Part shown: piece by piece, positions 8,163 to 28,264 of the stretch
Layout: every line of letters begins with the position of its first letter
Position numbering within the stretch: position 1 is the first letter of the stretch
NCBI RefSeq assembly: GCF_016127575.1
Contig: NZ_CP066018.1
Span: 1,530,001 to 1,562,000 of the forward strand
From: Cupriavidus necator
GTDB lineage: Bacteria > Pseudomonadota > Gammaproteobacteria > Burkholderiales > Burkholderiaceae
DNA: 32,000 nucleotides
Reading direction: 5' to 3'
Translations under genes and position numbers: made by a program
Notes under the pieces: generated by a model
The model's database searches: none
Seen by the model: the letters and a program-made list of their open reading frames with translations, nothing else
Told to the model about the DNA's origin: nothing

Positions 8163-8485
8163 GTTGATGTTGCAGAAGGGACTTTCGGCGCACAACCTGC
8201 GCCGCAGGGCCGCGGCAATACGGATCCCGCCCCCGGTCAAACCCAACCGGCCGGTCCAAATTGCTCCCCACCCGTTCGGAATCACGGCGCAAATCGCCGG
8301 CTCGGGTTAGGATGCGCGCCGTCGTATCGGCTCGCAGGCTGCAAGCACATTGGCATGTGACGACAACGACCCGCCGGCGCGTGCGCCGGCCGTGCGGCTG
8401 CCACAGCGGGGCCGCACCCAGGGAGAACCAACAAGGCTGGCCATGACGGATCCATTGCGTCATGCCGCCGGCACCAGAGACAAAA

Positions 8486-9234: not shown

Positions 9235-9258
9235 GCGCTTATCCGCGCTTATCCGCGC
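9235..9258. repeat. 10-bp tandem repeat GCGCTTATCC x2.4 spanning the stop codon of the binding-protein gene
   Basis: GCGCTTATCC occurs at 9235-9244 and 9245-9254, followed by GCGC. The second copy contains the TAA stop (9249-9251, minus strand). Confidence 0.7.
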
Positions 9259-10448
9259 ATGGCCTCGCGCCAGCGCGCCAGGAATGCGCGCTTGCGCATC
9301 GCGTCCTGCGCGGCCAGCAGGCCCGGGCCGACGCTGATCGGCTTGAGCGCGTAGCCCAGCCGCTCCGACAATGCCGCCGCGGTGTGCACGCTGTCGGTAT
9401 CGGTGCGGATGGTGTAGAGCTGCGAGGTGGACTTGGCCAGCAGCGCCTGGCCCTCGCGCGAGAGCAGGTAGTCCAGCCACAGCCGCGCCGCATTGGGCCG
9501 CGGCGCGCGCCGGGCAATAAAGGCTACTCGCGACATCACCAGCGTGTAGTCGCGCGGGGCGATCACGTCGATGGCCGCGCCACGCTCCATCAGCGACAGC
9601 GCGTACGAACCCAGCAGGTTGTAGCCCATCACCAGCTCGCCGCTGGCGATGCGCTCGATCATCTCGGCGGTGGACGCCGACAGCTGCACCCCGGCGCGCC
9701 CCAGCGCCTGCGCCAGATACCAGAACTCACTGCCCATGCGCGCGTCCTGCTGCGCCAGCAGGTAGCCCACGCCCGAGCGCTCCACGTCATACGTCACCAC
9801 CTTGCCATGCCAGCGCGGCGCGTGCTCCTGCAGCAGCCGCGCCAGCCCGCTGCGGCTGCGCGGCGGGCGCATGCCGGCCAGGTGGTGGCGGTTGTAGACG
9901 ATCACCGCGGGCTCGAAGGTGGTGCCCCAGGCCTCGTCGCGCCACACCGCCCAGCCGGGCAGGCCGGCGCGCTCGGGCGAGGCGTAGCGCTGCGCATGGC
10001 CGTCGTTGACCAGCTTGATCTGCAGGTCCATCGCCGTGCTCCACAGCACGTCGGCGAAGGCCGCATCGGGCGCGGGCCGCTTGCCGCCCAGCGCCGCGGT
10101 CTCGGCCAGGAAGCGCTGGTTCAGCTCGATCGTGTTGAGATCCTGGTAGTGCACGCGGATGCCCGGGTAGCGCGCCTCGAACGCGGCGATCAGCGGCTGC
10201 GCCACTTTCAGGTCGGTCGATGCATAGACCGTGACCATGCCTTCGCGCATGGCGCCGGCGATGGTGGCGTCATACCCGGACGGATACCCCGGCGGCGGCG
10301 CCGGGGGCCTAGACTGGGCATGAAGGGGCCACGCGGCCGGCAAGGTGGCGCCGGCCAGCAGCGATGCGCCCAGCAGGCGGCGGCGCTGCCCCGAGGCAGG
10401 CGGCTCGCAAGCGCACGGCAGGGACGGCGGGGGTGGACGCGTGGGCAC
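9249..10448 (-). CDS. ABC-transporter-type periplasmic substrate-binding protein (family 1, Fe(III)/FbpA-AfuA-like), orphan
   Basis: It has a GTG start at 10448 and a Tat-like signal (GQRRRLLGASLLAGATLPAAWPLHA). The mature part is typical of iron(III)-type SBPs (VTVYASTDLKVAQPLIAAFEARYPGIRVHY, DVLWSTAMDLQ). No permease or ATPase gene is adjacent. Confidence 0.75.
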   Translation of the reverse strand: MPTRPPPPSLPCACEPPASGQRRRLLGASLLAGATLPAAWPLHAQSRPPAPPPGYPSGYDATIAGAMREGMVTVYASTDLKVAQPLIAAFEARYPGIRVHYQDLNTIELNQRFLAETAALGGKRPAPDAAFADVLWSTAMDLQIKLVNDGHAQRYASPERAGLPGWAVWRDEAWGTTFEPAVIVYNRHHLAGMRPPRSRSGLARLLQEHAPRWHGKVVTYDVERSGVGYLLAQQDARMGSEFWYLAQALGRAGVQLSASTAEMIERIASGELVMGYNLLGSYALSLMERGAAIDVIAPRDYTLVMSRVAFIARRAPRPNAARLWLDYLLSREGQALLAKSTSQLYTIRTDTDSVHTAAALSERLGYALKPISVGPGLLAAQDAMRKRAFLARWREAMRG

Positions 10449-10639
10449 GGTGGTCGGAAACGGAAGAACTGCCTGTGGAAGGGAGCGGGCGCACGGACAA
10501 CACGCGCCGGGACCAGCGGGGCGGGGTTATTATAGGCGCCCGCGGCGGGCGCGCTCCATCGGTGCAGCCCCCTGTTCTCCGGACGGTTTCCGCCGCCGCA
10601 ACCGAAACATGGACCAAACCGGCAGAGGAGGAGACCGGC

Positions 10640-11314
10640 ATGCGCATCCTGCTGGTGGAGGATGAAATCGAACTGGCACGCTGGGTCGCCCGCGCGCTGG
10701 AGCAGGGCGGCTTTGTGATCGAGCATGTCGCCGACGGGCTGCAGGCCGAGGCCCGCCTGCAGGCCGAGGAATACGACGCGGTGCTGCTCGACCTGCGCCT
10801 GCCCGGCAAGGACGGGCTGGCCGTGCTCAAGTCCATGCGCGCGCGCGACGACCGCACCCCGGTGCTGATCCTGACCGCGCAGGACACGCTGGACGAACGC
10901 GTGCGCGGCCTGAACCTGGGCGCCGACGACTACCTGCCCAAGCCCTTTGCCATTGCCGAGCTGGAAGCGCGGCTGCTGGCGCTGATCCGCCGCAGCCGCG
11001 GGCGCGCGCATCCGCGCCTGCAGTGCGGCACGCTGGTGTTCGACGGCGAGACCCGCAGCTTCACGCTGGACGGCGCCCCGCTGGCGCTGACCCCGCGCGA
11101 ATCGACCCTGCTGGGCGCGCTGCTGGCACGCAGCGGCCAGCCGCTGACCAAGGCGCAGCTGCTCGACAAGGTGTTCTCGCTCGACGCCGATGTCTCGCCC
11201 GACGCGATCGAGGTGCTGGTCTACCGGCTGCGCAAGAAGCTGGCCGGGCACGGCGTCACCATCGTCACCCTGCGCGGCTTCGGCTACCTGCTGGAGCCCG
11301 AGGCCGGACGCTGA
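10640..11314 (+). CDS. tctD: OmpR/PhoB-family response regulator, TctD-like
   Basis: ATG 10640 lies 8 nt after an AGGAGGAG RBS. The receiver domain reads MRILLVEDE...LLDLRLPGKDG...DDYLPKPF. The winged-helix output domain (LTPRE...VFSLDADVSPDAIEVLVYRLRKKL...LRGFGYLL) resembles TctD. Confidence 0.85.
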   Translation: MRILLVEDEIELARWVARALEQGGFVIEHVADGLQAEARLQAEEYDAVLLDLRLPGKDGLAVLKSMRARDDRTPVLILTAQDTLDERVRGLNLGADDYLPKPFAIAELEARLLALIRRSRGRAHPRLQCGTLVFDGETRSFTLDGAPLALTPRESTLLGALLARSGQPLTKAQLLDKVFSLDADVSPDAIEVLVYRLRKKLAGHGVTIVTLRGFGYLLEPEAGR

Positions 11315-11316
11315 AG

Positions 11317-12771
11317 ATGGCGCGGCGCCATCGCGTCCCGTCCTGGCGCCGCGGCAGCCTGCGCCGGCAACTGCTGTTGCTGCTGGTGCCGGCGCTGGCG
11401 GCGATGATGGCGATCGACACCTGGCTCACCTACGGCACCCTGCGCGACGCCGCCAACACGGCTTATGACCGCTCGCTCTATGGCTCGATCCGCGCCATCG
11501 ACAGTGCCATCGGCATGGCTGGCGACAACGTCCAGCTGACCCTGCCCGATGCCGCCATGGAGATGTTCGAGACGGCGGCGCAGACCCATGTGTTCTACCG
11601 CGTGTCGACCGAGCGCGCCGGCCAGGTCGAGACCGTCACCGGCTACGACGACCTGCCGCTTCCTGCCGGCACCCTCGTCAACAACCAGCCGCGCTTCTAC
11701 GACGCCGAATACCTGGGCGAGTCCGTGCGCATCGCCGCGATGGCGCGGCCGGTATACCGCCCGGACGCGCGCATGCGCGTGATCATCCAGGTGGCCGAGA
11801 CCGCCGAGCCGCGCACCACGCTGATCGGCACGGTCTGGCGCAGCGCGCTGGCGCGCGACCTGCTGCTGATCCTGCTAAGCGCCGGCATCCTGGTGGGCGG
11901 CGTCACCTACGTGCTGCGCCCGCTGGCGCGCGTGCGCGACGACGTGGAAGCGCGCTCGCCGGATGACCTGACACCGCTAACGTTCGAGCGCGTGCCCGCC
12001 GAGGTGCGCCCGCTGGTCGACGCGGTCAACCTGCACGTGTCGCGCTCCGCGGCAATGGCGCAGTCGCAGGCCCAGTTCATCGCCGACGCCGCGCACCAGC
12101 TGCGCACGCCGCTGGCCATCCTGAAGACCCAGGCCGAATACGCCCAGCGCCAGCTGCGCGCCCCTGACCCCGAGACCGCGCGCCAGGCCGCCGGCGAAGC
12201 CGTGGGCGGCATCGTCACCCAGCTGGAACAGGCCGCGCGCCTGACCAACCAGCTGCTGGCGCTGGCGCGGGTACGCCAGCACCACGGCGAAGCCGCCCAG
12301 GAAGCCGATGGCATCGACATCATCGACGCCGTCACCGTGGCCGAGCAGGTGGCGCTGGACTACCTGCCGCTGGCGCGCGGCAAGCAGCAGGACTTCGGCT
12401 GGGAGCCGGTGCCGGGGCTGAAGCTGCCGGTGCGCGCCGACCCCGCGCTGCTGCGCGAGGCGCTGGCCAACCTGGTCCACAACGCGATCCAGTACTCGCC
12501 ACGCGGCAGCCGCATCACGCTGTCGGCCACGCGCGCCGACCAGACCGCGTGCCTGGTGGTGGAAGACGATGGGCCGGGCATTCCGGCCGAAGAGCGCGAA
12601 AAGGTCTTCGCGCGCTTCTACCGGCGCGTTGGCAATGCGGAGCCGGGCTCCGGGCTGGGGCTGGCCATCTCGCGCGAGATGGCGGCGCGGTTTGGCGGCA
12701 CGGTGGAGCTTGGCGACGGCTTGCAGGGCACCGGCGTGCGCGCGGTGCTGAAGCTGCCCATCGGCGAATAA
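11317..12771 (+). CDS. tctE: sensor histidine kinase, TctE-like (2CSK_N periplasmic domain)
   Basis: ATG 11317 lies 2 nt after the regulator stop. The N-terminal TM segment and periplasmic region resemble TctE (TAYDRSLYGSIRAI...VFYRVS...VTGYDDLPLP). The H-box is AAHQLRTPLA. The ATPase N/G boxes are LVHNAIQYSP, DDGPGI and GSGLGLAI. Confidence 0.85.
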   Translation: MARRHRVPSWRRGSLRRQLLLLLVPALAAMMAIDTWLTYGTLRDAANTAYDRSLYGSIRAIDSAIGMAGDNVQLTLPDAAMEMFETAAQTHVFYRVSTERAGQVETVTGYDDLPLPAGTLVNNQPRFYDAEYLGESVRIAAMARPVYRPDARMRVIIQVAETAEPRTTLIGTVWRSALARDLLLILLSAGILVGGVTYVLRPLARVRDDVEARSPDDLTPLTFERVPAEVRPLVDAVNLHVSRSAAMAQSQAQFIADAAHQLRTPLAILKTQAEYAQRQLRAPDPETARQAAGEAVGGIVTQLEQAARLTNQLLALARVRQHHGEAAQEADGIDIIDAVTVAEQVALDYLPLARGKQQDFGWEPVPGLKLPVRADPALLREALANLVHNAIQYSPRGSRITLSATRADQTACLVVEDDGPGIPAEEREKVFARFYRRVGNAEPGSGLGLAISREMAARFGGTVELGDGLQGTGVRAVLKLPIGE

Positions 12772-16886: not shown

Positions 16887-18401
16887 TCAGGCCGCGTTGT
16901 CGGCCTGCGCGTGCGCCGAGGTGCGGGTCGCGTGCCAGCGCAACAGGCGCGGGATCACCACCACCGCCACGGTCAGCGCCAGGATGGTGGCCGAGATCGG
17001 CTGGCGCAGGAACAGGGTCCAGTCGCCCTGGCCGATCGACAGCGCATTGCGCAGCTGCTTCTCGGCCATCGGCCCCAGGATCATGCCCACGATCACCGGC
17101 GCGGTGGGGAAGTCGAAGCGGCGCATCACCATGCCGAGCAGGCCGACCACGAACAGCAGCAGCAGGTCGAACCACGACTGGCGGATGCCGTAGGCGCCCA
17201 GCCCGGCGAAGATCAGGATGCCGCCGTACAGCAGCGGCGTGGGCACGCGCAGCATGCGCACCCACAGCCCGATCGCCGGCAGGTTCAGCACCAGCAGCAT
17301 GACGTTGCCGATATACAGCGACGCCAGCAGGCCCCACACCAGGTCGCCCGAGGTCTGGAACAGCATCGGGCCCGGCTGCAGGTTGTAGTTCTGGAACGCG
17401 GCCAGCAGGATCGCGGTGGTGTTGGAGGTGGGGATGCCCAGCGTCAGCAGCGGGGCCAGCGTCGCGGTCACTGCGGCGTTGTTGGCCGCTTCGGGGCCGG
17501 CCACGCCTTCGATCGCGCCGACCTTGCCGAAGTCTTCCTTGTGGTCGGACAGCTTCTTCTCGGTGGCATACGACAGGAAGGTCGGGATCTCGGCGCCGCC
17601 GGCGGGGATCAGCCCGAACGGGAAGCCGATGAAGGTGCCGCGGATCCACGCCGGGATCGAGCGCTTCCAGTCCGACTTGTTCATGTGGACCGAGCTGAGC
17701 TTGTTGAAGGTGCCCGCCGGCTGCGGGAAGAACGCGTTGAACAGCGCCTCGCCCACCGCGAACAGGCCCACCGCCACCACCACGATGTCGATGCCGTCGT
17801 ACAGCTCCTGCACGTTCATCGAATAGCGGGTCTGGCCCGACAGCGAATCCATGCCGATCAGGCCGATGCCCAGGCCCAGGAACAGTGCGGTCATGCCGCG
17901 CAGCAGCGACGAGCCCAGCACGGCCGAGACCGTGGTGAAGGCCAGCAGCATGATCATGAAGTACTCGCCCGGGCCGAACTGCAGCGCAACGTCCGCCGCC
18001 ACCGGCGCGAACATCGACAGCATCACCGTGGCGATGGTGCCCGCCACGAACGAGCCGATCGCCGCGGTGGCCAGCGCCGGGCCGGCGCGCCCGTTCTTGG
18101 CCATCAGGTTGCCTTCCATGGCTGTGACCATGGTGGAAGACTCGCCCGGCGTGTTCATCAGGATCGAGGTGGTCGAGCCGCCGTACATCGCGCCGTAGTA
18201 GATGCCGGCGAACATGATCAGCGCGGCGGTCGGTTCCACCTTGGCGGTCAGCGGCAGCAGCATCGCCACCGTCAGCGCGGGGCCGATGCCCGGCAGCACG
18301 CCGATGGCGGTGCCAAGGAAGCAGCCCACCAGGGCCCACATCAGGTTGATCGGCGTGATGGCCACGGCAAAGCCGTGCATCAGCTGGTTCAGGGTATCCA
18401 T
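16887..18401 (-). CDS. tctA: tripartite tricarboxylate transporter permease, large subunit TctA
   Basis: The 504-aa polytopic membrane protein starts [42 protein letters not shown], typical of TctA. An AAGGAG RBS precedes it, and it follows tctB and tctC. Confidence 0.9.
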
Positions 18402-18433
18402 TCGAAGACTCCTTGCTGGACGGGCGGGCGGGC

Positions 18434-18907
18434 TCAGAAGCCGGCGATGGGCAGCAGCGGCAGGTTGATGCCGAGCAGGAACTCAAACAGCGCCCACATC
18501 GGCACCGTGATGCACAGGCCCATCAGCGCGTCGCGCACGATGCGGCGGCTGCCGTAGCCACGCGCCACGCACACCATCAGCAGCGTGGAAGCGATCACGA
18601 AGCCAAGCGTGCCGATCAGCGCCATGTTCAGCACCAGGCCCGCGGCCACCCACAGGAAGCCGCCGAAGTTGTGCGGCGCGTTGGGCAGCTCGGCATCTTC
18701 TTCCGGCATATTGCGGAAACCGCCGCGCACGCCCTGCCAGGTCAGCAGCGCGCCGCACACGGCCAGGCCGACGGCCACCAGCGTGGGCACGAAGCGCGGC
18801 GACAGGCCGGCGTAGCCCTCGTCGCCGGAAATGCCGGACAGCCCGAGGAAGAAAAACAGGGAGAGCGCCAGCACGGCAATGCCGATGGCGAGGTGCGAGG
18901 GTTTCAT
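18434..18907 (-). CDS. tctB: tripartite tricarboxylate transporter small subunit TctB
   Basis: ATG 18907 follows a GGAG RBS. The 157-aa product has 4 TM segments ([22 protein letters not shown]...). It lies between tctC and tctA. Confidence 0.8.
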
Positions 18908-19047
18908 GGAGACTCCTTGGCCTTTGTCGCCAGCATGGGTGCTGGCGTCCGCGACGCTGGCAGGTGCTGCCCGCGCGGCGGCAGGGCCCGGCGACATATG
19001 ATTATTTGTCTGGTATCGCAGGTGGACACCGGGCCCTGCGCCGTTTT

Positions 19048-19134
19048 CCTGCCGCCGGGTTCACCGGCGGGATTGGCAGGCACGACAGGTAAAGCAGGTT
19101 GATGCGGTACTGCCGGTTTGGGTGCTGCCGGCAG
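19048..19134 (-). other. two GC-rich stem-loops without U-tracts in the 230-bp tctC-tctB spacer
   Basis: The first is CTGCCGG-N11-CCGGCAG (19110-19134), 3 nt after the tctC stop. The second is CCGCCGG-N5-CCGGCGG with an outer CCTGC/GCAGG extension (19048-19080). Confidence 0.4.
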
Positions 19135-19137
19135 TTC

Positions 19138-20106
19138 TTACTTGGCCACGCCCAGTTCACGCAGCGAGCCGCCCAGGCGGGCCGATTCGCTGTCGACGAA
19201 CTTGCCGAACTCGTCGCCAGTCAGCAGGAACGGGGTCCAGTCATTCTTCTGCAGCGTGTCCTTCCAGGCCTGGCTCTCGGTGGCCTTGACCACGGCGTCG
19301 ATCATGGCCTTGCGCTGCTCGGCGCTGATGCCGGGCGCGCCGTACACGCCGCGCCAGTTATAGATCTCGACGTTCACGCCTTGCTCCTTGAGCGTCGGGA
19401 TATCGGCGGTGCGGTCCTTGGAGGTCACCGCCAGCGCGCGCATCTTGCCGCTCTTGATGAAGGGCAGGAATTCCGACACGCCGGCGATGCCCACCGTCAC
19501 GTGGCCGCCCATGATCGAGGCCGAGGCTTCGCCGCCGCCCTGGAACGGCACGTAGTTGATCTTCTTGGGATCGACGCCCGATTCCTTGGCGATCAGGCCG
19601 GCCAGGATGTGGTCGATCGAACCCTTGGAGCCGCCGCCCCAGCTGACGCTGCCCGGGTTGGCCTTGAGCTGCGTGGTCAGGTCCTTGACCGACTTGATCG
19701 GCGAGCTGGCCGGCACGGTGATGACCATGGTGTCGGCGAACAGGCGCGCGATCGGGGTGGCGTTCTTCAGCGTGACCGGCGGCTTGTTGGTCTCGATCGC
19801 GCCCACCATCACCGCGCCCACCACCATCAGCGCATTGGGGTTGCCCTTGTCGGTATTGACGAACTGGGTCAGCGCGATGGTGCCGCCGGCGCCGCCCTTG
19901 TTGTCGTATGAAGCGGTCTTGGCCTGGCCCGCGGCAATCATCGCGGCGCCCAGCGAGCGGCCGGTCTGGTCAAAGCCGCCGCCGGGGTTGGCGCCGATCA
20001 TGACCTTGACGCTATCGAGCGCAAAGGCCGGCGCGGCGGCGAAGGTGGCGGCAACGGCGGCCGATGCCATCACGGCATGGGCCAGGCGGGAATAGGTACG
20101 GCGCAT
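19138..20106 (-). CDS. tctC: tripartite tricarboxylate transporter substrate-binding protein TctC (Bug family)
   Basis: The 322-aa protein has the signal peptide ...AAAPAFA|LD and a Bug/TctC-type fold sequence (GGGFDQTGR, WGGGSKGSIDHILAGL). A CAGGAGA RBS precedes it. Confidence 0.9.
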   Translation of the reverse strand: MRRTYSRLAHAVMASAAVAATFAAAPAFALDSVKVMIGANPGGGFDQTGRSLGAAMIAAGQAKTASYDNKGGAGGTIALTQFVNTDKGNPNALMVVGAVMVGAIETNKPPVTLKNATPIARLFADTMVITVPASSPIKSVKDLTTQLKANPGSVSWGGGSKGSIDHILAGLIAKESGVDPKKINYVPFQGGGEASASIMGGHVTVGIAGVSEFLPFIKSGKMRALAVTSKDRTADIPTLKEQGVNVEIYNWRGVYGAPGISAEQRKAMIDAVVKATESQAWKDTLQKNDWTPFLLTGDEFGKFVDSESARLGGSLRELGVAK

Positions 20107-20432: not shown

Positions 20433-21269
20433 TCAACCCGCCGGCTTCGCCTGCAGGCACGGGTCCTTGCGCGCCACCGCCGGCACCACCACGGCCATGT
20501 CGAACTCGCCGTCGGCAGGCGGGTTTTCCACATACCCCACGCTGACCACCTGCCCCACGCCCGCCCCCAGCCAGCGCGGCACGCCGATGTCGCGCCGCAC
20601 GTGGCCGTTGCCGGCGATCAGCACCGCGCCGCGCTGCGCGTAGGGGCGCAGCGTCTGCGCCATCACCGCATCGCGCGCGGCCTGCGCCGCCAGCATCCCG
20701 GGCAGCATGGCCTTGGGGAAATTGCCGCAGTGGCCCCGGTCCAGCACCGCCGTCTGCGCGGCCACGAGGTCGCCGGGGAGCGCACCGGACAGACCCAGCT
20801 GCTGGCGCTCGCCGGCCGGGAACAGGCTGTCCAGTCCGCCGCGCACGATCTTGCCGGCGTCGGCGCGCGACAGGTTGGCCGCCACCAGCGGCAGGTCGTA
20901 CCGCAGCGCCAGCGCCACCACCGGCCGGTACAGCGGCCATTGCCAGGCACCGCCGCCGGCCTGGGCGATCAGGTAGTCGGCATCGCGCGGGCGCTCGCGG
21001 CGGGCGCGCTCGATATCGGGCTGGCGCTCGCGGTCGAACTGTTCCATGGCGATGGCCGGGCGCCAGCCTTGCTCGACGGCGCGCGTCAGCGCGGCCAGGC
21101 GCTGCTGCTGCGCGGCGGCGTTGTCGTGGACCTCGCCCAGCAGCACGTAGGACTTGCCGGCGAAGGCGGCGCTGACCGCCTCGGGCGCGGGGCGCGTGGC
21201 CGCGCAGCCGGTGGCGAGCACAGCGACAGCGGCGGCCAGCATGCCGGCAATGCGCAAACGGAATGACAT
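20433..21269 (-). CDS. ChaN-family lipoprotein (haem-binding uptake / Tiki-like superfamily)
   Basis: ATG 21269 follows an AAGGAA RBS. The lipobox is LATG|C. The conserved LLGEVHDN motif and overall ChaN-like sequence are present. Confidence 0.75.
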   Translation of the reverse strand: MSFRLRIAGMLAAAVAVLATGCAATRPAPEAVSAAFAGKSYVLLGEVHDNAAAQQQRLAALTRAVEQGWRPAIAMEQFDRERQPDIERARRERPRDADYLIAQAGGGAWQWPLYRPVVALALRYDLPLVAANLSRADAGKIVRGGLDSLFPAGERQQLGLSGALPGDLVAAQTAVLDRGHCGNFPKAMLPGMLAAQAARDAVMAQTLRPYAQRGAVLIAGNGHVRRDIGVPRWLGAGVGQVVSVGYVENPPADGEFDMAVVVPAVARKDPCLQAKPAG

Positions 21270-21529
21270 CACGCAGTTCCTTTCCCTATCTCGTTGTAGT
21301 GGCGGGGTTGGCGGCCTGCGCTCCCGCTTGTTGCCCGGGTTGGTGTGATGGTCACGTCATCATTCCGTGACGACGCGCGGGCGTTCCAGGCGGTGCGCGG
21401 CGACGTCGAGCGCATCGGTGTTCGCAACCTTGTGCCGGCGCGCCCACGTCACCAGCACGTAGCCGCGCCCGCTTTCAGGCGGATGGCGCGCGCAGCCACT
21501 ACATGTCGCTGATGTCCGACCCTGGCCGG

Positions 21530-21587: not shown

Positions 21588-24500
21588 TCAGCGCTGGTGC
21601 ACGGTCTCGCCCGGAGCCTTGTCCGGCAGCTTGGTGCCTTCAGAATCAATCTGCAACGGCCCCGTCCCGGAGAACCGGTCCAGCGCGAGGTAGATCACCG
21701 GCGTGATAAACAGCGTGATCACCTGCGAGAACAGCAGGCCGCCGACCACGGCCAGGCCCAGCGGCTGGCGCAACTCGGCACCGGCGCCTAAGCCGAGCGC
21801 CAGCGGCAGCGCACCCATCACCGCGGCGAAGGTCGTCATCATGATCGGCCGGAAGCGCAGCAGGCACGCCTGCCGGATCGCCTTCGCCGGCGTCATCCCT
21901 TGTTCGCGCTGCGCGGCCAGCGCGAAGTCGATCATCATGATCGCGTTCTTCTTGACGATGCCGATCAGCATCAGCACGCCGATCACGGCAATCAGCGACA
22001 GCTCGACATTGAAGATGAACAGCGTCAGCAACGCGCCCACCGCCGCCGAAGGCAAACCCGCCAGGATCGTCAGCGGATGAATATAGCTTTCATACAGCAC
22101 GCCCAGCAGCGTGTAGATCACCGCGATGGCTGCCACCAGCAGCACGATCTGCGTCGCCTGCGACGACTGGAACACCGCCGCGTCGCCGCCCCAGCTGGTG
22201 AAGATCGAGCTGGGCATGGCGATCTCCTGCCGGTAGCGGTCGATGCGTGCCGAAGCATCGCCCAGCGCCGCGCCCGGCGCCAGGTTGAACGACACCGTCA
22301 CCGAAGGCAGCTGCCCCTGGTGGTTGACGGAGATTGGCCCGACCCGGCGCTCGGTGGTGGCGAAGGCTGAGACCGGCACCATCTGGCCGGTCTTGCTGCG
22401 CACATAGAGCTTGGAGAACGCGCTCTCGTCGGTGCGGTCGACATCGGCCGCCTGCAGGATCACGTAGTAGTTGTCGATCGGCGTATAGATGGTCGACACC
22501 TGCCGCTCGCCGAAGGCCGAGTACAGCGCGGTGCGCACGTCCTGCATCTGCACACCCAGCGCATTGGCCTTGTCGCGGTCGATCGACAGGTGCGCCTCCA
22601 GCCCGGACTGCTGCGAATCGCTGGTGACGTCGCGGAAGATCGGATCGGCGCGCATCTTTGCCATCAGCTGGTCGGACGAGTCCTGCAGCTGGCCGGCCTT
22701 CACGCTCTGCAATGTGTACTGGTAGCGGCTCTTGCTCTGGCGCCCGCCCAGCTGCAGGTTCTGCACCGGCGCAAAGTACACCGCCAGGCCCGGCACACCG
22801 GCAACATCGCGCCGCAGCGACTCGATCACCTTCGGCATCGCTTCGCGCTCGCCGCGCGGCTTCAGTTCGACAAACATGCGCCCGGTGTTGATGGCGGGCG
22901 ACGGGCCGCCGCCGATGGCGACCACGATGCTCTTGACCGCGGGGTTGGCGCGCATGCGCTCGGCGGCGTCGCGCAGGCGTTCCGCCATGGCGTCGAAGGA
23001 GATGTCCTGCGGGCCTTCGGCGTTGACGCGGATCTGGCCGATGTCCTCTTCGGGGAAGAAGCCCTTGGGAATGGTGACGAACAGCACCGCGGTCAGCACG
23101 AAGGTCAGGCCCGCGACCGCCAACACGGTGCGGCGGTGCGCCAGGCACCAGTCCAGCCCGCGCGCATAGCGGTGCAGCGTGAACTCGAACAGGTTCTCGA
23201 ACCACTGCGTGGAGCGCATGCCGAAGGTCTGCTTCTGCACGATGTCGGGCTGCGCCGACGCGTGGTCGCCGTAGGCATGGTGCGATTCATCCACCGGCAC
23301 GTTCTCGGCCGACAGGAAGCGCGCGCACAGCATCGGGATCAGCGTCAGCGACACCAGCGCCGATACCAGGATCGCCAGCGACACCACCGCGGCAAATTCA
23401 TGGAACAACAGCCCGATCACGCCCGGCATGAAGAAGATCGGGATAAACACCGCCACCAGCGAGATCGAGATCGACAGGATGGTGAAGCCCATCTCGCGCG
23501 AACCCACCAGCGCGGCCTTCAGCGGCGCCACGCCTTCCTCGATATGGCGCACGATGTTCTCGAGCATAACGATGGCGTCGTCCACCACCAGGCCCACCGC
23601 CAGGGTGATGGCCAGCAGCGAGACGTTGTCCAGGCTGTAGCCGAAGGCCTTCATCAGCGCCACCGTGCCGATCAGCGAGATCGGCAGCGACACCGTGGGG
23701 ATCAGCGTGGCGGCGGCGCGGCGCAGGAACAGGAAGATCACCATCACCACCAGCGCCACCGTCAGCGCCAGCGTGAACTGCACGTCGTGGATCGATTCGC
23801 GGATCGAGCGCGAGCGGTCGTTGACCACCGACACATTGACCGAGCCCGGCATCTGCTGGATCAGGCGGGGCAGGGCGGCGTTGATCGCATCGACCACTGC
23901 CACGGTGTTGGCGTCGGGCTGGCGCAGCACGGCCAGCACAATCGAGCGCTCGTTGTTGAGCCAGCTGCCGGTCTTGATGGTCTCGACGCTGTCCTCGACC
24001 TCGGCCACGTCAGAGAGCCGCACCAGCGCGCCGCTGGGCTGGCTGGCGACGATGATGTTGCGGAAGGCGTCGGCGCTGGTCAGCTGCCGGTTGGCCTGGA
24101 TGGTCAGGGTCTGGCGCGCGCTGTCGAGCGTGCCCACCGGCGTGTTGGCGTTGGCGCGATTGAGCGCCGTGGCCAGCTCGTCTAGCGTCAGGCCGCGCGC
24201 GGCGAGCGCATCGGGGTGGGCGCGCACGCGCACGGCAAAGCGCTTCTGCCCGAAGATCTGCACCTGCGCCACCCCCGGCAGCGTGGCCAGCGTGGGCGAG
24301 ATCAGGTTGTCGCCAAAGGCATTGAGGTCGGCCAGGCTCATCGCCGGCGAGTTGATCGCCAGCAGCAGCACCGGCGCGTCGGCCGGGTTGACCTTGCGGT
24401 ACGACGGCGGCACCGTCATCTCGATCGGCAGCGAACGCTGGGCGCGGAACAGTGCCGCCTGCACGTCGACGGCCGCGTCGTCGATATTGCGGTCGTTGTT

Positions 24501-24785
24501 GAATTCGATGGTGATGCTGGAGTTGCCGAGCGTGTTCTGCGAGCTGATCACCGTCACGCCGGGGATGGTCGCGAACTGCTTCTCCAGTTGCGTGGCCACC
24601 GACGCCGCCATGGTCTCCGGGCTGGCGCCGGGCAGCGTGGCGGTGACCTGGATCACCGGCGAGTTGAAGCTGGGCAGCGCCGCGATCGGGATGGTCGGAT
24701 ACAGCACGATGCCGGCGACCACCACCGCCAGGCACAGCAGCACCGTCATCACCGGACGGCGGATGCAGAGTTCAGACAGCGTCAT
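21588..24785 (-). CDS. efflux RND transporter permease subunit (MdtB/MdtC-like)
   Basis: The 1065-aa protein starts MTLSELCIRRPVMTVLLCLAVVVAG and has RND 12-TM topology. Its ATG lies 3 nt after the adaptor stop. Confidence 0.95.
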   Translation of the reverse strand: MTLSELCIRRPVMTVLLCLAVVVAGIVLYPTIPIAALPSFNSPVIQVTATLPGASPETMAASVATQLEKQFATIPGVTVISSQNTLGNSSITIEFNNDRNIDDAAVDVQAALFRAQRSLPIEMTVPPSYRKVNPADAPVLLLAINSPAMSLADLNAFGDNLISPTLATLPGVAQVQIFGQKRFAVRVRAHPDALAARGLTLDELATALNRANANTPVGTLDSARQTLTIQANRQLTSADAFRNIIVASQPSGALVRLSDVAEVEDSVETIKTGSWLNNERSIVLAVLRQPDANTVAVVDAINAALPRLIQQMPGSVNVSVVNDRSRSIRESIHDVQFTLALTVALVVMVIFLFLRRAAATLIPTVSLPISLIGTVALMKAFGYSLDNVSLLAITLAVGLVVDDAIVMLENIVRHIEEGVAPLKAALVGSREMGFTILSISISLVAVFIPIFFMPGVIGLLFHEFAAVVSLAILVSALVSLTLIPMLCARFLSAENVPVDESHHAYGDHASAQPDIVQKQTFGMRSTQWFENLFEFTLHRYARGLDWCLAHRRTVLAVAGLTFVLTAVLFVTIPKGFFPEEDIGQIRVNAEGPQDISFDAMAERLRDAAERMRANPAVKSIVVAIGGGPSPAINTGRMFVELKPRGEREAMPKVIESLRRDVAGVPGLAVYFAPVQNLQLGGRQSKSRYQYTLQSVKAGQLQDSSDQLMAKMRADPIFRDVTSDSQQSGLEAHLSIDRDKANALGVQMQDVRTALYSAFGERQVSTIYTPIDNYYVILQAADVDRTDESAFSKLYVRSKTGQMVPVSAFATTERRVGPISVNHQGQLPSVTVSFNLAPGAALGDASARIDRYRQEIAMPSSIFTSWGGDAAVFQSSQATQIVLLVAAIAVIYTLLGVLYESYIHPLTILAGLPSAAVGALLTLFIFNVELSLIAVIGVLMLIGIVKKNAIMMIDFALAAQREQGMTPAKAIRQACLLRFRPIMMTTFAAVMGALPLALGLGAGAELRQPLGLAVVGGLLFSQVITLFITPVIYLALDRFSGTGPLQIDSEGTKLPDKAPGETVHQR

Positions 24786-24788
24786 GGC

Positions 24789-26027
24789 TCAGTGCCCCGC
24801 GGTGGCAGGGGCCGGACGGGCGGCGGCGGCCGAGGCGCCGGCGGCCGGGGCCTCGCGCACCAGCGCGCCGGGGCGCAGGTTCTGCATGCCTTCCACGACT
24901 ACGCGGGCGCCGGGTTGCACCCCCTCGACCACGGCGGCGGCGGCAGTGGTGGTCACCACCTGCACCGGCACGCGCGCCACCTTGCTGTCGGGCTGGACCA
25001 CATAGACAAAGCGGCCTTCGGGGCCGGTCACCACCGCCTGCGGCGGCACCGACAGCGCGCCCTTCAGGGTCTGCACCACGGCGTTGACGTTGGCATAGGT
25101 GCCCGGCCACAGCCGCTGCTCCTCATTGTCGAACTGCGCCTTGACGCGGATGGTGCCGTACTGCGGATCGACGGTGTTATCCACAAAGGTGATCCTGCCG
25201 GTCACCGGGGTCTTGCTGCCGTCGTTGGGCAGCGCGGTGACCTGCACCGGGCCGGCGTGCAGCGCCTCGCGCAGCGCGCCCAGCTGCCGCTCGGGCAGGC
25301 TGAAGGTGACGGCAATCGGCTGCACCTGGGCGATGATGACCATCGGCTGGGTGCTGTTGGGCAGCACCAGCGAACCCGGGAAGGCGTTGATCACGCCGGT
25401 GCGGCCGCTGATGGTGGCGCGGATGGCGCCGTAGCTGACCGCCACGCGGCTGGCTTCGATCGCGGCCTGGTCGGCGCGCACGGTGGCGGCAAAACCATCC
25501 ACCTTGGCCTGGGCGGTGTCGACCGCGCTCCTGGAGATGAAGTTGCGCTGCAGCAGCTCCTGGCTGCGCGCGAGCGTGCGCCGGGCATCGGCCAGGTCGG
25601 CCTGGTCGCGCAGCAACTGGGCCTGAGCCTTGGCCAGGTTGGCCTCGTCCATGCGGGTATCGAGCGAGAACAGCAGGTCGCCCGGCCTGACGGTCTGGCC
25701 TTCCTTGATATGGACGGTGCGCACGGTGCTGGACACCTGCGGGCGCACCTCGACCGTGGACAGCGCGGTGACATTGCCGTTGGCCGTGACCTGCAGCGGC
25801 ACGTCGCCCTGCTGCACGCGCGCGGTGGACACCACCACGGCGGCCGGCGCCTTGGGCGCGGGCTTGGGCGCAAACCAGGTACGCCAGGCAAACCAGCCCA
25901 GGCCGGCAATGACCAGCACCACGGCCACCACCGCCCACGGCGATACGCGGCCGCGCCCGGTTCCGGTGGCCGCCCTCCAGTTGCTGTCGACGAAGCCCTT
26001 GGGCTGGTCGATCCTGTCAGATTTCAT
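24789..26027 (-). CDS. efflux RND transporter periplasmic adaptor subunit (MdtA-like, TM-anchored)
   Basis: An N-terminal transmembrane anchor (SPWAVVAVVLVIAGLGWFAW) replaces the lipobox. MFP lipoyl, hairpin and barrel regions are present. The start is uncertain: ATG 26027 or GTG 26048. Confidence 0.85.
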   Translation of the reverse strand: MKSDRIDQPKGFVDSNWRAATGTGRGRVSPWAVVAVVLVIAGLGWFAWRTWFAPKPAPKAPAAVVVSTARVQQGDVPLQVTANGNVTALSTVEVRPQVSSTVRTVHIKEGQTVRPGDLLFSLDTRMDEANLAKAQAQLLRDQADLADARRTLARSQELLQRNFISRSAVDTAQAKVDGFAATVRADQAAIEASRVAVSYGAIRATISGRTGVINAFPGSLVLPNSTQPMVIIAQVQPIAVTFSLPERQLGALREALHAGPVQVTALPNDGSKTPVTGRITFVDNTVDPQYGTIRVKAQFDNEEQRLWPGTYANVNAVVQTLKGALSVPPQAVVTGPEGRFVYVVQPDSKVARVPVQVVTTTAAAAVVEGVQPGARVVVEGMQNLRPGALVREAPAAGASAAAARPAPATAGH

Positions 26028-26166
26028 ATTTGTGTGGACCCTCTGCACCGCGTCTTCGCGCCACTCCCCGTAATCGCCCGGCTGGTTGTGCCCAGATGTT
26101 GCCGGTGCGCGTCGCGCAAAGACTCTACTAGTACCGCGCTTCGCCCGCCGGAGCCAGCGCCGCGTA

Positions 26167-26287: not shown

Positions 26288-26926
26288 TCAGAAAAGCTGC
26301 CGCCGGCCATCGCGGCGCCACTGATTGACGCTGTCGACCGACAGTTCGCGTGGCCCGGCCTGCACAACCACGACATCGCCGGCGCGCACTTCTCCCTTCA
26401 GCACCACGCTGAGGTAGACCCCGGAGTAGCCGCTCTGGATCATGTCGCGCACCGCGTGGCGGTAGCCCAGCGCGGCATTGAACTTGTAGCAGGGCTTGCG
26501 CGGCGACTCCACCCGCAGCAGGGCCGTGCCCACGCGCACGAGGTCGCCGATCCAGAGTTGGGATTCAAGCAGCCCCTCCAGGGTCAGGTTCTCGCCGATG
26601 GCGCCAAACGGCAACGGCGGGCCTGACTCAGGCTGCCCGCACGCGCGGCGGCGCGCGTTCCACCACGGGTAGTGCTCGAAGGGATAGGCGTAGACCGCCT
26701 TGTCCAGGCCGCCGTGCACGGTCAGGTCACCCTGTTCGTCGCCGGCCAGGCCCAGCGGCTGCACCTGTACCCGCAACGGGTGCAGCAGGGTACTGACAGG
26801 GTGCTTGCGAATGCCCGACAGCACCACCGCCTCGGTGCCAGCCCCCGCGACCACCAGCGGGATGGCCTTGCCCAGGCTTACCGCCAGCACGCGCGCAAGG
26901 CCCGGCCGAGGTCTGGATTCGCTCAC
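26288..26926 (-). CDS. MOSC domain-containing protein (YiiM-like)
   Basis: The 212-aa protein contains GDEQGDLTVHGG, GENLTLEG and the invariant-Cys region ESPRKPCYKF typical of MOSC/YiiM. It has a GTG start at 26926, which is uncertain. Confidence 0.8.
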   Translation of the reverse strand: MSESRPRPGLARVLAVSLGKAIPLVVAGAGTEAVVLSGIRKHPVSTLLHPLRVQVQPLGLAGDEQGDLTVHGGLDKAVYAYPFEHYPWWNARRRACGQPESGPPLPFGAIGENLTLEGLLESQLWIGDLVRVGTALLRVESPRKPCYKFNAALGYRHAVRDMIQSGYSGVYLSVVLKGEVRAGDVVVVQAGPRELSVDSVNQWRRDGRRQLF

Positions 26927-26958
26927 GTGCGCCCCCGCTTCGTGGTTACCCTTCCGGC

Positions 26959-27026
26959 TGTGGAAAGGGTTGTGGATAAGCTGCGGATATGCCTGAGGAT
27001 AACGGGGCGGATAACACTGTGGACAA
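26959..27026 (-). promoter_or_regulatory. array of six same-orientation, helically phased DnaA-box-like 9-mers
   Basis: Minus-strand reads are CTTTCCACA (26959-67), TTATCCACA (26971-79, perfect consensus), ATATCCGCA (26982-90), TTATCCTCA (26994-27002), TTATCCGCC (27006-14) and TTGTCCACA (27018-26). Start-to-start spacing is 12, 11, 12, 12 and 12 bp. Confidence 0.6.
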
Positions 27027-27091
27027 GTGCTTGGTGCGGTCCCTCACAAGGAAGCCGGCGGCGGGGAGCCGCCTCTGGTTTCAGCCTTGCA

Positions 27092-28264
27092 TCACACCTG
27101 CTGCGCCGCCTGCGGCCGCTGCCACTGGCAGCCCAGCGCCCGGGCGCGTTGCGATACCGCCAGCGCCGCCAGCATCAGCGCCGCCGCGCCCCAGTGCAGC
27201 ATATCGGCGCCGGCCAGCGTATAGATGGCGGCCCCGACCATGGCGCCGGCGGCCTGGCCCAGGTAGATCGATGAAGAATTCAGCGAGATCGACACCGATG
27301 CACGCTCCGGCGCCAGCAGCACCAGCCGCGCCTGCTGCGCGCTGTTGGTGGCAAACCCGCCCGCGCCCCACAGCATGAACAGCAACACCAGCGCAACGCT
27401 GCCCAACCCGGCCAGCGGCCACAGCACCATGGCCGTGATCGAGGTCAGCAGCGTGACCTGCACGATCCGGCTGGGCGTGACCCGGTCCATGCGCGACGCC
27501 GCCATGGCATTGCCGAACACGCCGCAGGCGCCGTAGGCCAGGAACATCAGGCTGAGCGCGCCACCGCTGATGCCGTAAACGTCGCGCATCAGCGGGGCGA
27601 TATAGGTGAACACGGTGAACATGCCCGCCGACGAGATCATGGTGGTCAGCACCACCAGCATGATCGGCTTGTGGCGCAGCACCGCGCCCCAGGCCTCGCG
27701 CCCGGCCGGCGGCACCTTCAGCCCGCGCGGCAGCGCGCGCCAGACCGCCGCCGACACCAGCAGCGCCAGGGCCCCGACCAGCGCCATGCTGACGCGCCAG
27801 CCCAGCGTGCTGGAAATCCACGTGCCCAGCGGCACGCCCACCACGCTGGCAATGCTCCAGCCAAGAAACACAAAGCTGATGGCACGCCCGCGCGTCTGTG
27901 CGTTGACCAGCAGCGGCAGCGTGGCGGCGGTCTGGGGCGTATAGATGGCCGCGCCGATCGCGGTCAGGAAGCGGATCGCCATCAGCGCCGCAAAGCTGGG
28001 CGCAAACGCGGCGGCCAGGTGCATTACCCCGTAGACCAGCAGCGACCCGGCCAGCAGCAGCCGGCGGTCGATGCGCGAGCCCAGCGTGGCAAACAGCGGG
28101 GCGCCGATGCAGGTGGCCAGCGCAAACACCGAGATCAGCTGCCCGGCGCTGGCCGCGCCCAGCCCGAAATCGCCGGCAATGTCGTTCAACATGCCGGTAA
28201 CGATCATCGCACCGGTGCCAATGACGAAGTTGCCGACGCAGAGCGTCACTAGCCTGGGGTCCAT
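27092..28264 (-). CDS. MFS transporter (12-TM, AraJ/drug-sugar efflux-like)
   Basis: ATG 28264 gives MDPRLVTLCVGNFVIGTGAMIVTGMLNDIA... and a hydrophobic MFS pattern over 390 aa. The longer ORF-track start adds a Pro/Gly-rich non-membrane leader that I consider unlikely. Confidence 0.8.
   Translation of the reverse strand: MDPRLVTLCVGNFVIGTGAMIVTGMLNDIAGDFGLGAASAGQLISVFALATCIGAPLFATLGSRIDRRLLLAGSLLVYGVMHLAAAFAPSFAALMAIRFLTAIGAAIYTPQTAATLPLLVNAQTRGRAISFVFLGWSIASVVGVPLGTWISSTLGWRVSMALVGALALLVSAAVWRALPRGLKVPPAGREAWGAVLRHKPIMLVVLTTMISSAGMFTVFTYIAPLMRDVYGISGGALSLMFLAYGACGVFGNAMAASRMDRVTPSRIVQVTLLTSITAMVLWPLAGLGSVALVLLFMLWGAGGFATNSAQQARLVLLAPERASVSISLNSSSIYLGQAAGAMVGAAIYTLAGADMLHWGAAALMLAALAVSQRARALGCQWQRPQAAQQV

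Follow-up and report, generated by a model that had tools for sequence, protein, structure and literature searches.

A conserved array of six co-oriented DnaA-box-like 9-mers upstream of a MOSC/yiiM gene in Cupriavidus: a candidate DnaA scaffold outside the origin

Between the genes of an MFS transporter and a MOSC-domain protein on chromosome 1 of an H16-like Cupriavidus necator, six 9-mers that resemble the DnaA box TTATCCACA occupy 68 bp (26959–27026, minus strand) in one shared orientation. We read this array, on sequence grounds, as an extra-origin DnaA-box cluster and a candidate DnaA oligomerisation scaffold with mainly local output. We hold this reading tentatively, and slightly prefer a local gating of MOSC/yiiM transcription over an action on DnaA itself.

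Results

Anatomy and genomic setting of the array

Positions refer to the window, i.e. the whole stretch of 32,000 nucleotides that was analyzed. The start-to-start spacing of the six 9-mers is 12, 12, 12, 11, and 12 bp, which leaves gaps of 3, 3, 3, 2, and 3 nt from box A to box F, and the array comprises one 9/9, two 8/9, and three 7/9 matches to the consensus (Table 1); box F matches the Schaper–Messer form TT(A/T)TNCACA at 8/9 positions. A first-pass annotation had described six same-orientation 9-mers at intervals of 11–12 bp with gaps of 2–3 nt, and its coordinates, sequences, and match counts were all reproduced. Its term "helically phased" is imprecise: With a mean period of 11.8 bp instead of 10.5 bp, the array is regular, yet not strictly located on one face of B-DNA. 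Tandem Repeats Finder did not report the array because its copies are too diverged.

Table 1. Features of the MFS–MOSC intergenic region and its surroundings. Strong and weak grades of the boxes are predicted; clade 2 comprises the loci L081, L084, L085, and L086.
Feature	Position	Strand	Sequence and remarks	In related loci
Box A	27018–27026	−	TTGTCCACA, 8/9; strong anchor, MFS-proximal end	Invariant in 8 clade-1 genomes and L209; clade 2, TTTTCCACA or TTGTCCACA
Box B	27006–27014	−	TTATCCGCC, 7/9; weak site	Invariant in clade 1 and L209; clade 2, TTGTCCAAC, TTGTCCAGC, or TTATCCAGC
Box C	26994–27002	−	TTATCCTCA, 8/9, mismatch at position 7; weak or intermediate site	Invariant in clade 1 and L209; clade 2, CTGTCCACC
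Box D	26982–26990	−	ATATCCGCA, 7/9; weak site, followed by the only 2-nt gap	Invariant in clade 1; clade 2, TGTTCCCTG or TGACCCACA; L209, TTGTCCACA
Box E	26971–26979	−	TTATCCACA, 9/9; perfect consensus anchor	Invariant in clade 1; clade 2, TTATCCACG; L209, CTATCCACA
Box F	26959–26967	−	CTTTCCACA, 7/9 to TTATCCACA; MOSC-proximal end	Clade 2, perfect TTATCCACA; L209, degenerate
Invariant 10-mer	27029–27038	−	CGCACCAAGC; just upstream of box A	Identical in 8 clade-1 genomes and L209; absent from clade 2
Hairpin	27057–27073	.	GGCGGC-GGGGA-GCCGCC; GC-rich, after the MFS stop; flagged on the plus strand by the scan	
MFS transporter gene	27092–28264	−	Pfam MFS_1, 3.3e-43; 390-aa call, ORF open to 28474	
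MOSC-domain (YiiM-like) gene	26288–26926	−	Pfam MOSC, 6.9e-32; GTG start at 26926	
Ribosome-binding stretch of the MOSC gene	26931–26938	−	GCGGGGGC; G-rich	

The MFS gene, which is the upstream neighbor of the array, and the MOSC gene are co-directional and separated by 165 nt; both were also called in the related locus L087, the latter with 212 aa, and names of its JGI homologues read "YiiM". From the MFS stop (27092–27094), 65 nt extend to box A, and within this segment lies a GC-rich hairpin, probably a weak terminator of the MFS transcript. Relatives carry a different sequence at this position and, judged by eye, most of them can fold a hairpin there; locus L209 has none. At the other end of the array, box F is 32 nt away from the MOSC GTG codon, the corresponding distance being 20 nt in most relatives. 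In relatives without the array, the MFS–MOSC spacer is only 48–70 nt long, which suggests co-transcription of the two genes; the array would therefore sit inside the transcription path. The 10-mer next to box A is no further DnaA box (3/9 in register), and it is kept unchanged in clade 1 and L209 although 57% of the neutral sites vary.

The clustering exceeds chance

Counting both strands together, the window holds 35 sites with at most two mismatches to the box; besides the array, no group of at least three such sites within 100 bp was found in these 32 kb. Same-strand TNTCCNC pairs 11–12 bp apart occur five times in the array and once elsewhere in the window, against a simulated mean of 0.095 per window. 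A two-copy 10-bp duplication at 9236–9255 is the only similar repeat pair outside the array. Control sequences of other genera, approximately 458 kb in total, contain 0.05 boxes per kb with at most one mismatch, and one group of three boxes (at most two mismatches) within 80 bp, in mixed orientation. The earlier claim of a non-random array is hence upheld within the window as well as against the control DNA. A borrowed plasmid oriV module was considered and rejected, as none of 72,556 plasmids searched by blastn matched the array.

Selection acts on the 9-mers and not on the spacers

Across eight Cupriavidus species (clade 1), 1 of 54 box columns is variable compared with 10 of 14 spacer columns (p = 3.5e-8), while 58 of 101 four-fold sites of the adjacent gene vary (57%). 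The boxes differ from these four-fold sites (p = 1.9e-13) and the spacers do not (p = 0.39); therefore the selected unit is exactly the 9-mer in the DnaA-box register. Selection on the 9-mers is thus very strong, whereas the spacers evolve neutrally. Judged by this evolutionary signature, each 9-mer should count, the weak ones included, and the bases in between should not.

In the second lineage (clade 2), the box sequences differ, yet spacing (12, 12, 12, 11, 12) and orientation are identical, and both lineages share a strong–weak–strong layout with strong boxes at the ends and weak ones in the middle. All array-bearing genomes have co-oriented boxes with gaps of 2–3 nt, and a perfect TTATCCACA is present in each of them save L209, which has CTATCCACA. 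Of 13 loci, 12 are free of indels within the array, the exception again being L209 with a 12-nt step from box D to box E and a shifted, degenerate box F. Among the 16 distinct boxes, positions T4-C5-C6 are the most invariant (nearly invariant) and position 7 is variable.

With boxes and phasing kept in 13 related loci and substitutions falling into the spacers instead of the boxes, the conservation proposed in the first-pass annotation as a test is borne out. From 9 of 22 related loci the array is absent, with no replacement array within the examined flanks (0.2–4 kb), and some of the close relatives concerned keep an identical gene order. Such a lineage-restricted distribution fits an accessory element and not a core one.

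Which molecule reads the repeats

The near-invariance of TCC and the variability of position 7 do not quite correspond to the E. coli preference TT(A/T)TNCACA, and this speaks against DnaA as the binding protein. Position 7 of the box matters for E. coli DnaA, and the E. coli oriC arrays have an 11-bp period (2-bp gaps) as opposed to the 11.8 bp of the Cupriavidus array. A different DNA-binding protein might accordingly read direct repeats with a TCC(A)C core and a period of 12 bp, not 11 bp, for instance one that regulates the MFS/MOSC/RND cluster, and the repeats would then resemble DnaA boxes partly by coincidence. The dominance of T4-C5-C6 and the drift of position 7 across the distinct boxes would suit such a protein. 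Regulators of the OmpR family bind direct repeats, and the gene of one lies 16 kb from the array (10364–11314). However, this regulator adjoins tctCBA and a sensor kinase (2CSK_N domain), which it probably serves, and OmpR-type sites have a 10–11 bp repeat with usually two to four units. Moreover, a perfect or near-perfect full-length TTATCCACA occurs in every array-bearing genome, all nine positions of the box are conserved, and the window contains no similar repeat pairs apart from the duplication mentioned above. We consequently judge another protein improbable. For DnaA itself, the box-recognition residues of the Burkholderia cenocepacia protein, which belongs to the same family, have been reported to be identical to those of E. 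coli (PMC4948915).

The repeats might also act as RNA, either as a sponge of the CsrB/RsmZ type with six plus-strand GGA motifs and an end hairpin, or as a structured leader of the MOSC mRNA. Each repeat does have GGA, which is complementary to TCC, as its invariant core, and the terminator-like hairpin just downstream is called on the plus strand. Yet the fold of either strand is no more stable than that of shuffled controls (z = −0.20 and −0.04), and no consensus fold with GGA in its loops emerges from the alignment (−6.9 kcal/mol). Rfam has no match to the array: A scan of 26700–27300 at E ≤ 1 returned only a meaningless miRNA match inside the MFS gene. Furthermore, the whole 9-mer is conserved with the spacers as the free positions, the rigid 12-nt spacing is unlike any sponge RNA known to us, and a literature search of titles and abstracts brought up no Csr system for Cupriavidus. 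Lacking stability above shuffles, a conserved fold, and an Rfam family, the RNA reading was rejected as highly implausible.

The array is hardly an origin module

Replicon records conventionally begin at dnaA, and the array lies approximately 43 kb from the end of its record, where this gene is conventionally placed. In complete genomes, array-bearing loci are located 43–61 kb from the record end, and an array-less orthologous locus (L082) at about 80 kb. The Pfam-supported genes of the window are biased toward the minus strand (16 of 21), which fits an origin beyond the high-coordinate end of the window and argues for a fork that passes through it in one direction.

Could the array be a displaced or second DnaA-assembly module of the chromosomal oriC? 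A metagenome scan for TNTCCNC repeated four times with a 12-bp period provided, among the matches listed, one comparator: Locus L201 combines an AT-rich block with two opposed arrays of TTATCCAC[AC] at a period of 11–12 bp and looks like a real origin built from a like array type, so that each half of this probable origin is a tight same-orientation array. The listed matches included no further Cupriavidus arrays; by eye, most were 12-nt tandem repeats in unrelated DNA. Origin positions on the main chromosomes of Burkholderiaceae are, moreover, uncertain, with DnaA-box clusters dispersed over the origin region (PMC4948915; PMC2864759). Against an oriC module, an AT-rich unwinding element is lacking within 600 bp, as the first-pass annotation had already stated for the immediate surroundings: The lowest-GC 40-mer in this range is the array itself (47.5% GC). 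The only really AT-rich spot of the window, at 8132, is 19 kb away from the array. In addition, a second, opposed array is missing, the intergenic space between the co-directional genes measures merely 165 nt, and close relatives with the same gene order lack the array. The GC skew over the window is flat and noisy with no switch seen, 32 kb being too short a span. An origin function thus appears scarcely credible.

A search for an integration host factor (IHF) site near the array gave no match to WATCAANNNNTTR with at most one mismatch; the best nearby IHF-like match, CACCAAGCACTTG, has two mismatches and is absent from clade 2.

Comparison with known DnaA-binding systems

The arrays of E. 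coli oriC (R1-R5M-tau2-I1-I2 and R4-C1-I3-C2-C3, with 2-bp gaps) share with the Cupriavidus array the near-abutting 9-mers in the same orientation, the number of about five to six positions, and the anchoring of weaker sites, one to three bases off consensus, by strong consensus boxes. They differ in that Cupriavidus has a single array instead of two opposed ones, with neither an unwinding element nor an IHF site nor an origin context, and gaps of mostly 3 nt (12-bp period) instead of 2 nt. Cooperative assembly of ATP-DnaA on clusters of low-affinity sites has been described (PMC8682772).

Like E. coli datA, the array is a non-coding DnaA-box cluster outside oriC, DnaA binding being predicted for Cupriavidus. 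The boxes of datA are spread over several hundred base pairs and its function needs an IHF site, whereas the six Cupriavidus boxes fill 68 bp with no IHF-like site; a sequence relationship is neither expected nor seen. The target of datA is DnaA itself instead of the unwinding of DNA (PMC4585315, PMC10950094). With E. coli DARS1 and DARS2, which alter the nucleotide state of DnaA (PMC4585315, PMC8682772), the array has in common that it is a small DnaA-box cluster outside the origin. All six Cupriavidus boxes are co-oriented on the minus strand and an opposed box is missing. In the DARS core, by contrast, one of the three boxes points the opposite way, and DARS2 also requires IHF and Fis; a DARS-like element is therefore unlikely. 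The label "datA/DARS-like locus" given earlier needs correcting in that the opposed box of DARS and the IHF site of datA are both missing; that the array is DnaA-box-like and has no unwinding element is upheld.

The DnaA-box clusters (DBCs) of Bacillus subtilis are origin-proximal, jointly affect initiation, and contain looser boxes in mixed orientation over hundreds of base pairs. They are likewise intergenic, yet belong to a different phylum, and the Cupriavidus array is far more compact and regular. They have been described as binding DnaA stably at high box density and affinity and as modulating their neighbors, sda positively, ywlC and yydA negatively (PMC2533591). DnaA-regulated promoters, such as those of dnaA, nrdAB, and Pseudomonas aeruginosa gidA/oriCII, have boxes at or upstream of the promoter and usually carry one to few of them; the Cupriavidus array, in contrast, is a phased array of six sites, and a consensus scan found no promoter. 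For gidA/oriCII, the boxes make transcription DnaA-dependent (PMC13438810).

The closest parallel by taxonomy is found in the same genus: A tight DnaA-box cluster on chromosome 1 of C. metallidurans CH34 (3,707,588–3,707,653) was mentioned in passing in 2010 (PMC2864759), so the remark of the first-pass annotation, which was not aware of such a locus in this bacterial group, needs qualifying. The dnaA gene of CH34 begins at position 104, with the GC-skew switch located about 90 kb before it (PMC2864759). By position and box count, on which the comparison is based, four near-consensus boxes in 65–66 nt equal the length of a six-position array and lie on the same side of dnaA, at a distance of about 220 kb as compared with about 43 kb here.

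Discussion

Local output or control of DnaA

For a scaffold that acts on its neighborhood, we propose the following sequence of events. DnaA would form a head-to-tail oligomer of six protomers on the array, with the high-affinity end boxes (A, and E/F) filled first and the weak middle boxes B–D filled cooperatively, presumably only when ATP-DnaA is abundant. The resulting complex would span the full 68 bp from the MFS terminator to the ribosome-binding site of MOSC/yiiM and either occlude a promoter within the array or block read-through from the MFS gene; yiiM expression would then track the level of DnaA-ATP and hence the replication cycle. Because box F is located only 20 nt (here 32 nt) from the MOSC start, a promoter must overlap the array or lie upstream of it. 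A consensus scan of 26600–27400 found no promoter of the sigma-70 type, and none is conserved between the two clades; hand-fitted hexamers (TTGTCC-N19-TATCCT) were dropped, as they are not conserved in clade 2. The patchy, lineage-restricted occurrence fits a cis-regulatory add-on. Two further points count against a local output: One or two boxes suffice in known DnaA-regulated promoters, so that six of them, conserved so precisely, seem excessive for a repressor site, and upstream of MOSC homologues in other genera DnaA boxes are not in excess (1 match in 16 kb, i.e. background), so no general DnaA–yiiM logic is evident.

Alternatively, the array may bind DnaA near the origin and lower the initiation potential in the manner of datA or the DBCs, by titration or by hydrolysis of DnaA-bound ATP in the oligomer, with the neighboring genes being incidental. 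Anatomy and selection signature agree with such a control locus as well as with a local output; the invariance of the weak boxes B–D is expected of sites that discriminate ATP-DnaA; and in other genera MOSC genes are not associated with DnaA boxes. The distance to the record end and the gene-strand bias would also suit it, and the CH34 cluster, which is comparably tight with 4 boxes in 65 nt, occupies a different position on the origin side. However, the near-origin position is a property of the whole syntenic block and is therefore not independent evidence. Six sites would titrate merely a handful of molecules, so a catalytic role is needed, and that of datA depends on the IHF site which was not found near the array. 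Finally, the array is missing at 9 of the 22 related loci with no replacement in their flanks. In our assessment this makes a control locus somewhat unlikely. A more specific version, which we consider less likely again, would be a minimal IHF-independent control locus, consisting of one head-to-tail scaffold of six sites close to the origin of chromosome 1: It would capture ATP-DnaA after initiation and inactivate or buffer it, and array-less species would have equivalents at other origin-side positions, such as the CH34 cluster.

Significance

Judged from its sequence, the array is a real candidate for a DnaA-sensing switch or for a DnaA control site outside the origin. Control of DnaA beyond E. 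coli and B. subtilis is largely unexplored, and datA and DARS have no recognizable counterparts in most groups; here, a compact and sharply defined element is available in a genetically tractable and industrially used species. If its output is local, as we slightly prefer, DnaA would act on the gene of a MOSC/YiiM enzyme through an unusually elaborate switch. The YiiM family has been implicated in the detoxification of mutagenic N-hydroxylated base analogues, and the switch would tie the protection of nucleotide pools to the state of replication. A global output would instead open a first way into the homeostasis of DnaA in those beta-proteobacteria whose genomes are multipartite. In case it is an IHF-independent control locus, it would be, to our knowledge, the first datA-like element defined outside enterobacteria among Gram-negatives, and, in an organism with two chromosomes, it could also set the moment at which the second one fires in dependence on DnaA.

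Anatomy of the array

The six 9-mers, located exactly where the first-pass annotation had placed them, lie on the minus strand and are lettered A to F in minus-strand reading from the MFS gene to the MOSC gene. Their start-to-start steps of 12, 12, 12, 11 and 12 bp leave gaps of 3, 3, 3, 2 and 3 nt: The regular spacing implied by the earlier wording "helically phased" holds, but the period is 11.8 bp and not the 10.5 bp of the helical repeat.

Features of the array, its neighborhood and other sites in the window
Feature	Position	Strand	Remark
Box A TTGTCCACA	27026-27018	minus	8/9 to TTATCCACA
Box B TTATCCGCC	27014-27006	minus	7/9 to TTATCCACA
Box C TTATCCTCA	27002-26994	minus	8/9 to TTATCCACA
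Box D ATATCCGCA	26990-26982	minus	7/9 to TTATCCACA
Box E TTATCCACA	26979-26971	minus	9/9
Box F CTTTCCACA	26967-26959	minus	7/9 to TTATCCACA
10-mer CGCACCAAGC	27029-27038	minus	just upstream of box A
Segment with 12-nt insertion AGCCGGAAGGGT	26927-26958		insertion between box F and MOSC ribosome-binding site
MFS transporter gene	27092-28264	minus	Pfam MFS_1; upstream of array
GC hairpin	27057-27073		after MFS stop codon
MOSC-domain YiiM-like gene	26288-26926	minus	212 aa, GTG start; downstream of array
RND efflux pair	24789-26048, 21588-24785		downstream of MOSC gene
Isolated TTATCCACA	25177-25185	plus	within membrane-fusion gene
Isolated TTTTCCACA	20524-20532	plus	within ChaN-domain ORF (20433-21272)
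OmpR-family response regulator and 2CSK_N-domain sensor kinase, tctCBA tricarboxylate transporter operon	10364-12771, 16887-20106
Tandem duplication, GCGCTTATCC twice, then GCGC	9236-9255		exact, 10 bp
AT-rich stretch TATTATATATACATTCAAGCATGTATGTTAAGTTGATGTT	8132-8171		23% GC

On both strands of the 32-kb window, 35 sites match the DnaA box with at most two mismatches, and no second group of three such boxes within 100 bp was found there. Five sites have at most one mismatch (1.56 expected per window), three of them inside the array. Same-strand TNTCCNC pairs at 11-12 bp occur five times consecutively in the array and once elsewhere in the window; simulated sequence yields a mean of 0.095 per window. 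About 458 kb of control DNA around MOSC homologues of other genera has a box density of 0.05 per kb (≤1 mismatch) and, as its densest group, one mixed-orientation trio (≤2 mismatches) within 80 bp. The rest of the window and the control DNA hold no comparable cluster, and the first-pass observation stands confirmed.

The two isolated plus-strand sites together amount to the chance expectation. The window's sole strongly AT-rich stretch is flanked by a membrane-fusion/AcrB/OEP efflux operon (6618-7928 and downstream, minus) and a divergent TetR-family gene (8462-9229, plus), and is probably their common promoter/operator region. The tandem duplication lies where the TetR gene stop and a solute-binding-protein gene converge, and can be read as a pair of TTATCCGCG units 10 bp apart, each 7/9 to the DnaA box.

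Conservation and distribution

Orthologous loci were retrieved by way of the MOSC protein. Clade 1 comprises eight genomes (the window, Cupriavidus sp. TMH.W2, C. necator SHC 2-3, C. alkaliphilus, C. neocaledonicus, UYPR2.512, "R. pickettii" RAL3 and C. oxalaticus) with MOSC proteins 85-94% identical to that of the window. The array is nearly constant among them, next to an MFS 3′ end and hairpin that can hardly be aligned. Variable columns make up 1 of 54 in the boxes versus 10 of 14 in the spacers (Fisher p=3.5e-8). At four-fold degenerate sites of the MOSC gene, 58 of 101 vary in the same genomes; the spacers are indistinguishable from these (p=0.39) and therefore behave as neutral, whereas the boxes differ (p=1.9e-13); even second codon positions, of which 11% vary, are much less constrained than the boxes. 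Judged from these alignments, the unit under selection is exactly the 9-mer in DnaA-box register, the three weak boxes included. Of the new results, this evidence of selection is the strongest.

A second lineage, clade 2 (Cupriavidus sp. WKF15, C. yeoncheonensis and two metagenomic contigs; MOSC 70-77% identical), carries an array with the position, orientation and 12,12,12,11,12 spacing of clade 1 and different box sequences, in one case TTTTCCACA / TTGTCCAAC / CTGTCCACC / TGTTCCCTG / TTATCCACG / TTATCCACA. Good boxes at the ends (A, E/F) and three poor ones in the middle are common to both clades; in the variant locus L209 (MOSC 80%), position D is strong and F decayed. The conservation sought among relatives was thus found, as 9-mers kept in clade 1 and spacing kept in clade 2.

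The 10-mer CGCACCAAGC, 3/9 to the DnaA box in register, shows no variation among the eight clade-1 genomes and L209, though neutral sites vary at 57%, and is absent from clade 2; extended by the next bases it becomes CACCAAGCACTTG, the IHF consensus with two mismatches. The 12-nt insertion, also found in UYPR2.512 (L010), lengthens the distance between the array and the MOSC start codon from 20 to 32 nt; other array-bearing genomes keep 20-21 nt, except L209, in which position F is degenerate.

Nine related loci do not carry the array: Three are without the MFS gene and the remainder keep it, with an MFS-MOSC spacer of 48-70 nt in L083, L210, L211 and L213 and of ~150 nt in L082. The array is accordingly real, selected and lineage-restricted, with more than one gain or loss in its history. 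The MFS gene was itself inserted between the genes for the 2-hydroxyacid dehydrogenase and the MOSC protein, and is missing in three Cupriavidus lineages (L006, L007, L008). The array was found solely in MFS-bearing genomes, yet not in all (L082, L083, L210, L211 and L213 are without it), and consequently arose after the MFS insertion or was lost repeatedly.

Candidate binding protein

Probably, the array is occupied by DnaA in vivo: In each array-bearing genome at least one box equals or nearly equals the consensus, and conservation extends over the entire 9-mer. In E. coli oriC, strong anchors flank weak DnaA sites. The array has this layout too, and ATP-DnaA is reported to assemble cooperatively on clustered sites of low affinity (PMC8682772). 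In B. cenocepacia, of the same family, the box-reading residues of DnaA are reported to match E. coli DnaA exactly (PMC4948915). Two features count against DnaA: Invariance within the boxes is highest at T4-C5-C6, with variation at position 7, and the period is 12 bp instead of 11 bp. The OmpR-family regulator (10364-12771 region), whose position with the 2CSK_N kinase beside tctCBA is likely a TctD/TctE arrangement, was considered as a binder and set aside.

Among the matches listed by a generic metagenome scan, L201, a 1.4-kb contig without dnaA, also points to DnaA: An intergenic AT-rich block, followed by two opposed tight arrays of DnaA boxes with a period of 11-12 bp (GTGGATAA-type, then TTATCCAC[AC]-type, ~450-720, reverse strand), is flanked there by genes for a gamma-glutamyltranspeptidase and an inositol-monophosphatase-family protein. 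L201 is a probable replication origin made of arrays of the same kind as that of Cupriavidus. Among the matches listed, four tandem TTTTCTCCACAG copies, whose 9-mer TTCTCCACA is 8/9 to the DnaA box, occur in three unrelated AT-rich metagenome contigs of 32-43% GC (L108 2918-2965, L127 8855-8902, L197 780-827), followed in L127 and L197 by repeated GTTTCTGGGTAG-like units.

In its form, the Cupriavidus array is like half of the DnaA-assembly region of an origin, set between two ordinary genes. A chromosomal origin was rejected: An opposed array is lacking, just 165 nt separate the co-directional genes, relatives with the same gene order are without the array, and, in agreement with the "no unwinding element" of the first-pass annotation, no AT-rich element was found within 600 bp. 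A plasmid origin module was rejected after blastn of the array against 72,556 plasmids gave no match. Six plus-strand GGA motifs and the hairpin led us to consider a CsrB/RsmZ-like RNA, which was likewise dismissed: Both strands fold no better than shuffles (z = -0.20, -0.04), the array alignment has no consensus fold, an Rfam search gave no match, and fixed 9-mers with free spacers are not the pattern expected of a GGA-loop RNA.

Genomic setting

Upstream of the MFS gene lie genes for a 2-hydroxyacid dehydrogenase and GTP-PEPCK. The PEPCK protein is identical on CP196472.1 (4,049,929 bp), where gene order is the same, which puts the array near 4,006,700, ~43 kb from the record end. Array-bearing loci in other complete chromosome-1 records lie 61, 54 and 43 kb from the end, the array-less L082 ~80 kb. 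Such records start at dnaA by convention. In C. metallidurans CH34, dnaA starts at position 104, and GC skew switches ~90 kb before it, beside three perfect DnaA boxes (PMC2864759). The window's GC skew is flat, and the minus strand carries 16 of its 21 Pfam-supported genes; this strand bias would fit a fork arriving from the high-coordinate end and an array position between the true origin and dnaA.

Possible functions

Extra-origin DnaA-box clusters are known as datA and DARS in E. coli and from B. subtilis (PMC4585315, PMC2533591); among them, this array is unusually compact and regular. We found no description or test of it in the literature; the earlier annotation's remark that it knew of no such locus in this bacterial group calls for a qualification, since a tight cluster in CH34 was mentioned in passing in 2010 (PMC2864759). 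The suggested likeness to DARS is unlikely because all six boxes are co-oriented. That the array acts on DnaA itself, like datA or the B. subtilis clusters, is the somewhat less likely of two readings: Conserved weak ATP-DnaA-type sites near the origin resemble such a device, MOSC genes of other genera show no DnaA-box association, and the comparably tight CH34 cluster lies at a different origin-side locus (PMC2864759), but simple titration would take more than six sites, and an IHF site like that of datA was not found near the array.

Control of MOSC/yiiM expression by a DnaA oligomer, which is not mutually exclusive with action on DnaA, is our slightly favored, tentative proposal from the sequence context. 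The array fills the space from the probable MFS terminator to the MOSC ribosome-binding site, and box F ends 20 nt from the start codon in most genomes (32 nt in the window), so that any MOSC promoter overlaps the array or sits upstream; a consensus scan found no promoter at the array. A repressor would need fewer boxes than the six kept so exactly here, which counts against such control. The short spacer in most array-less relatives suggests MFS-MOSC co-transcription, and the patchy distribution suits a cis-regulatory add-on. A DnaA oligomer on the array would occlude initiation or stop read-through, and yiiM expression would thereby be tied to ATP-DnaA.
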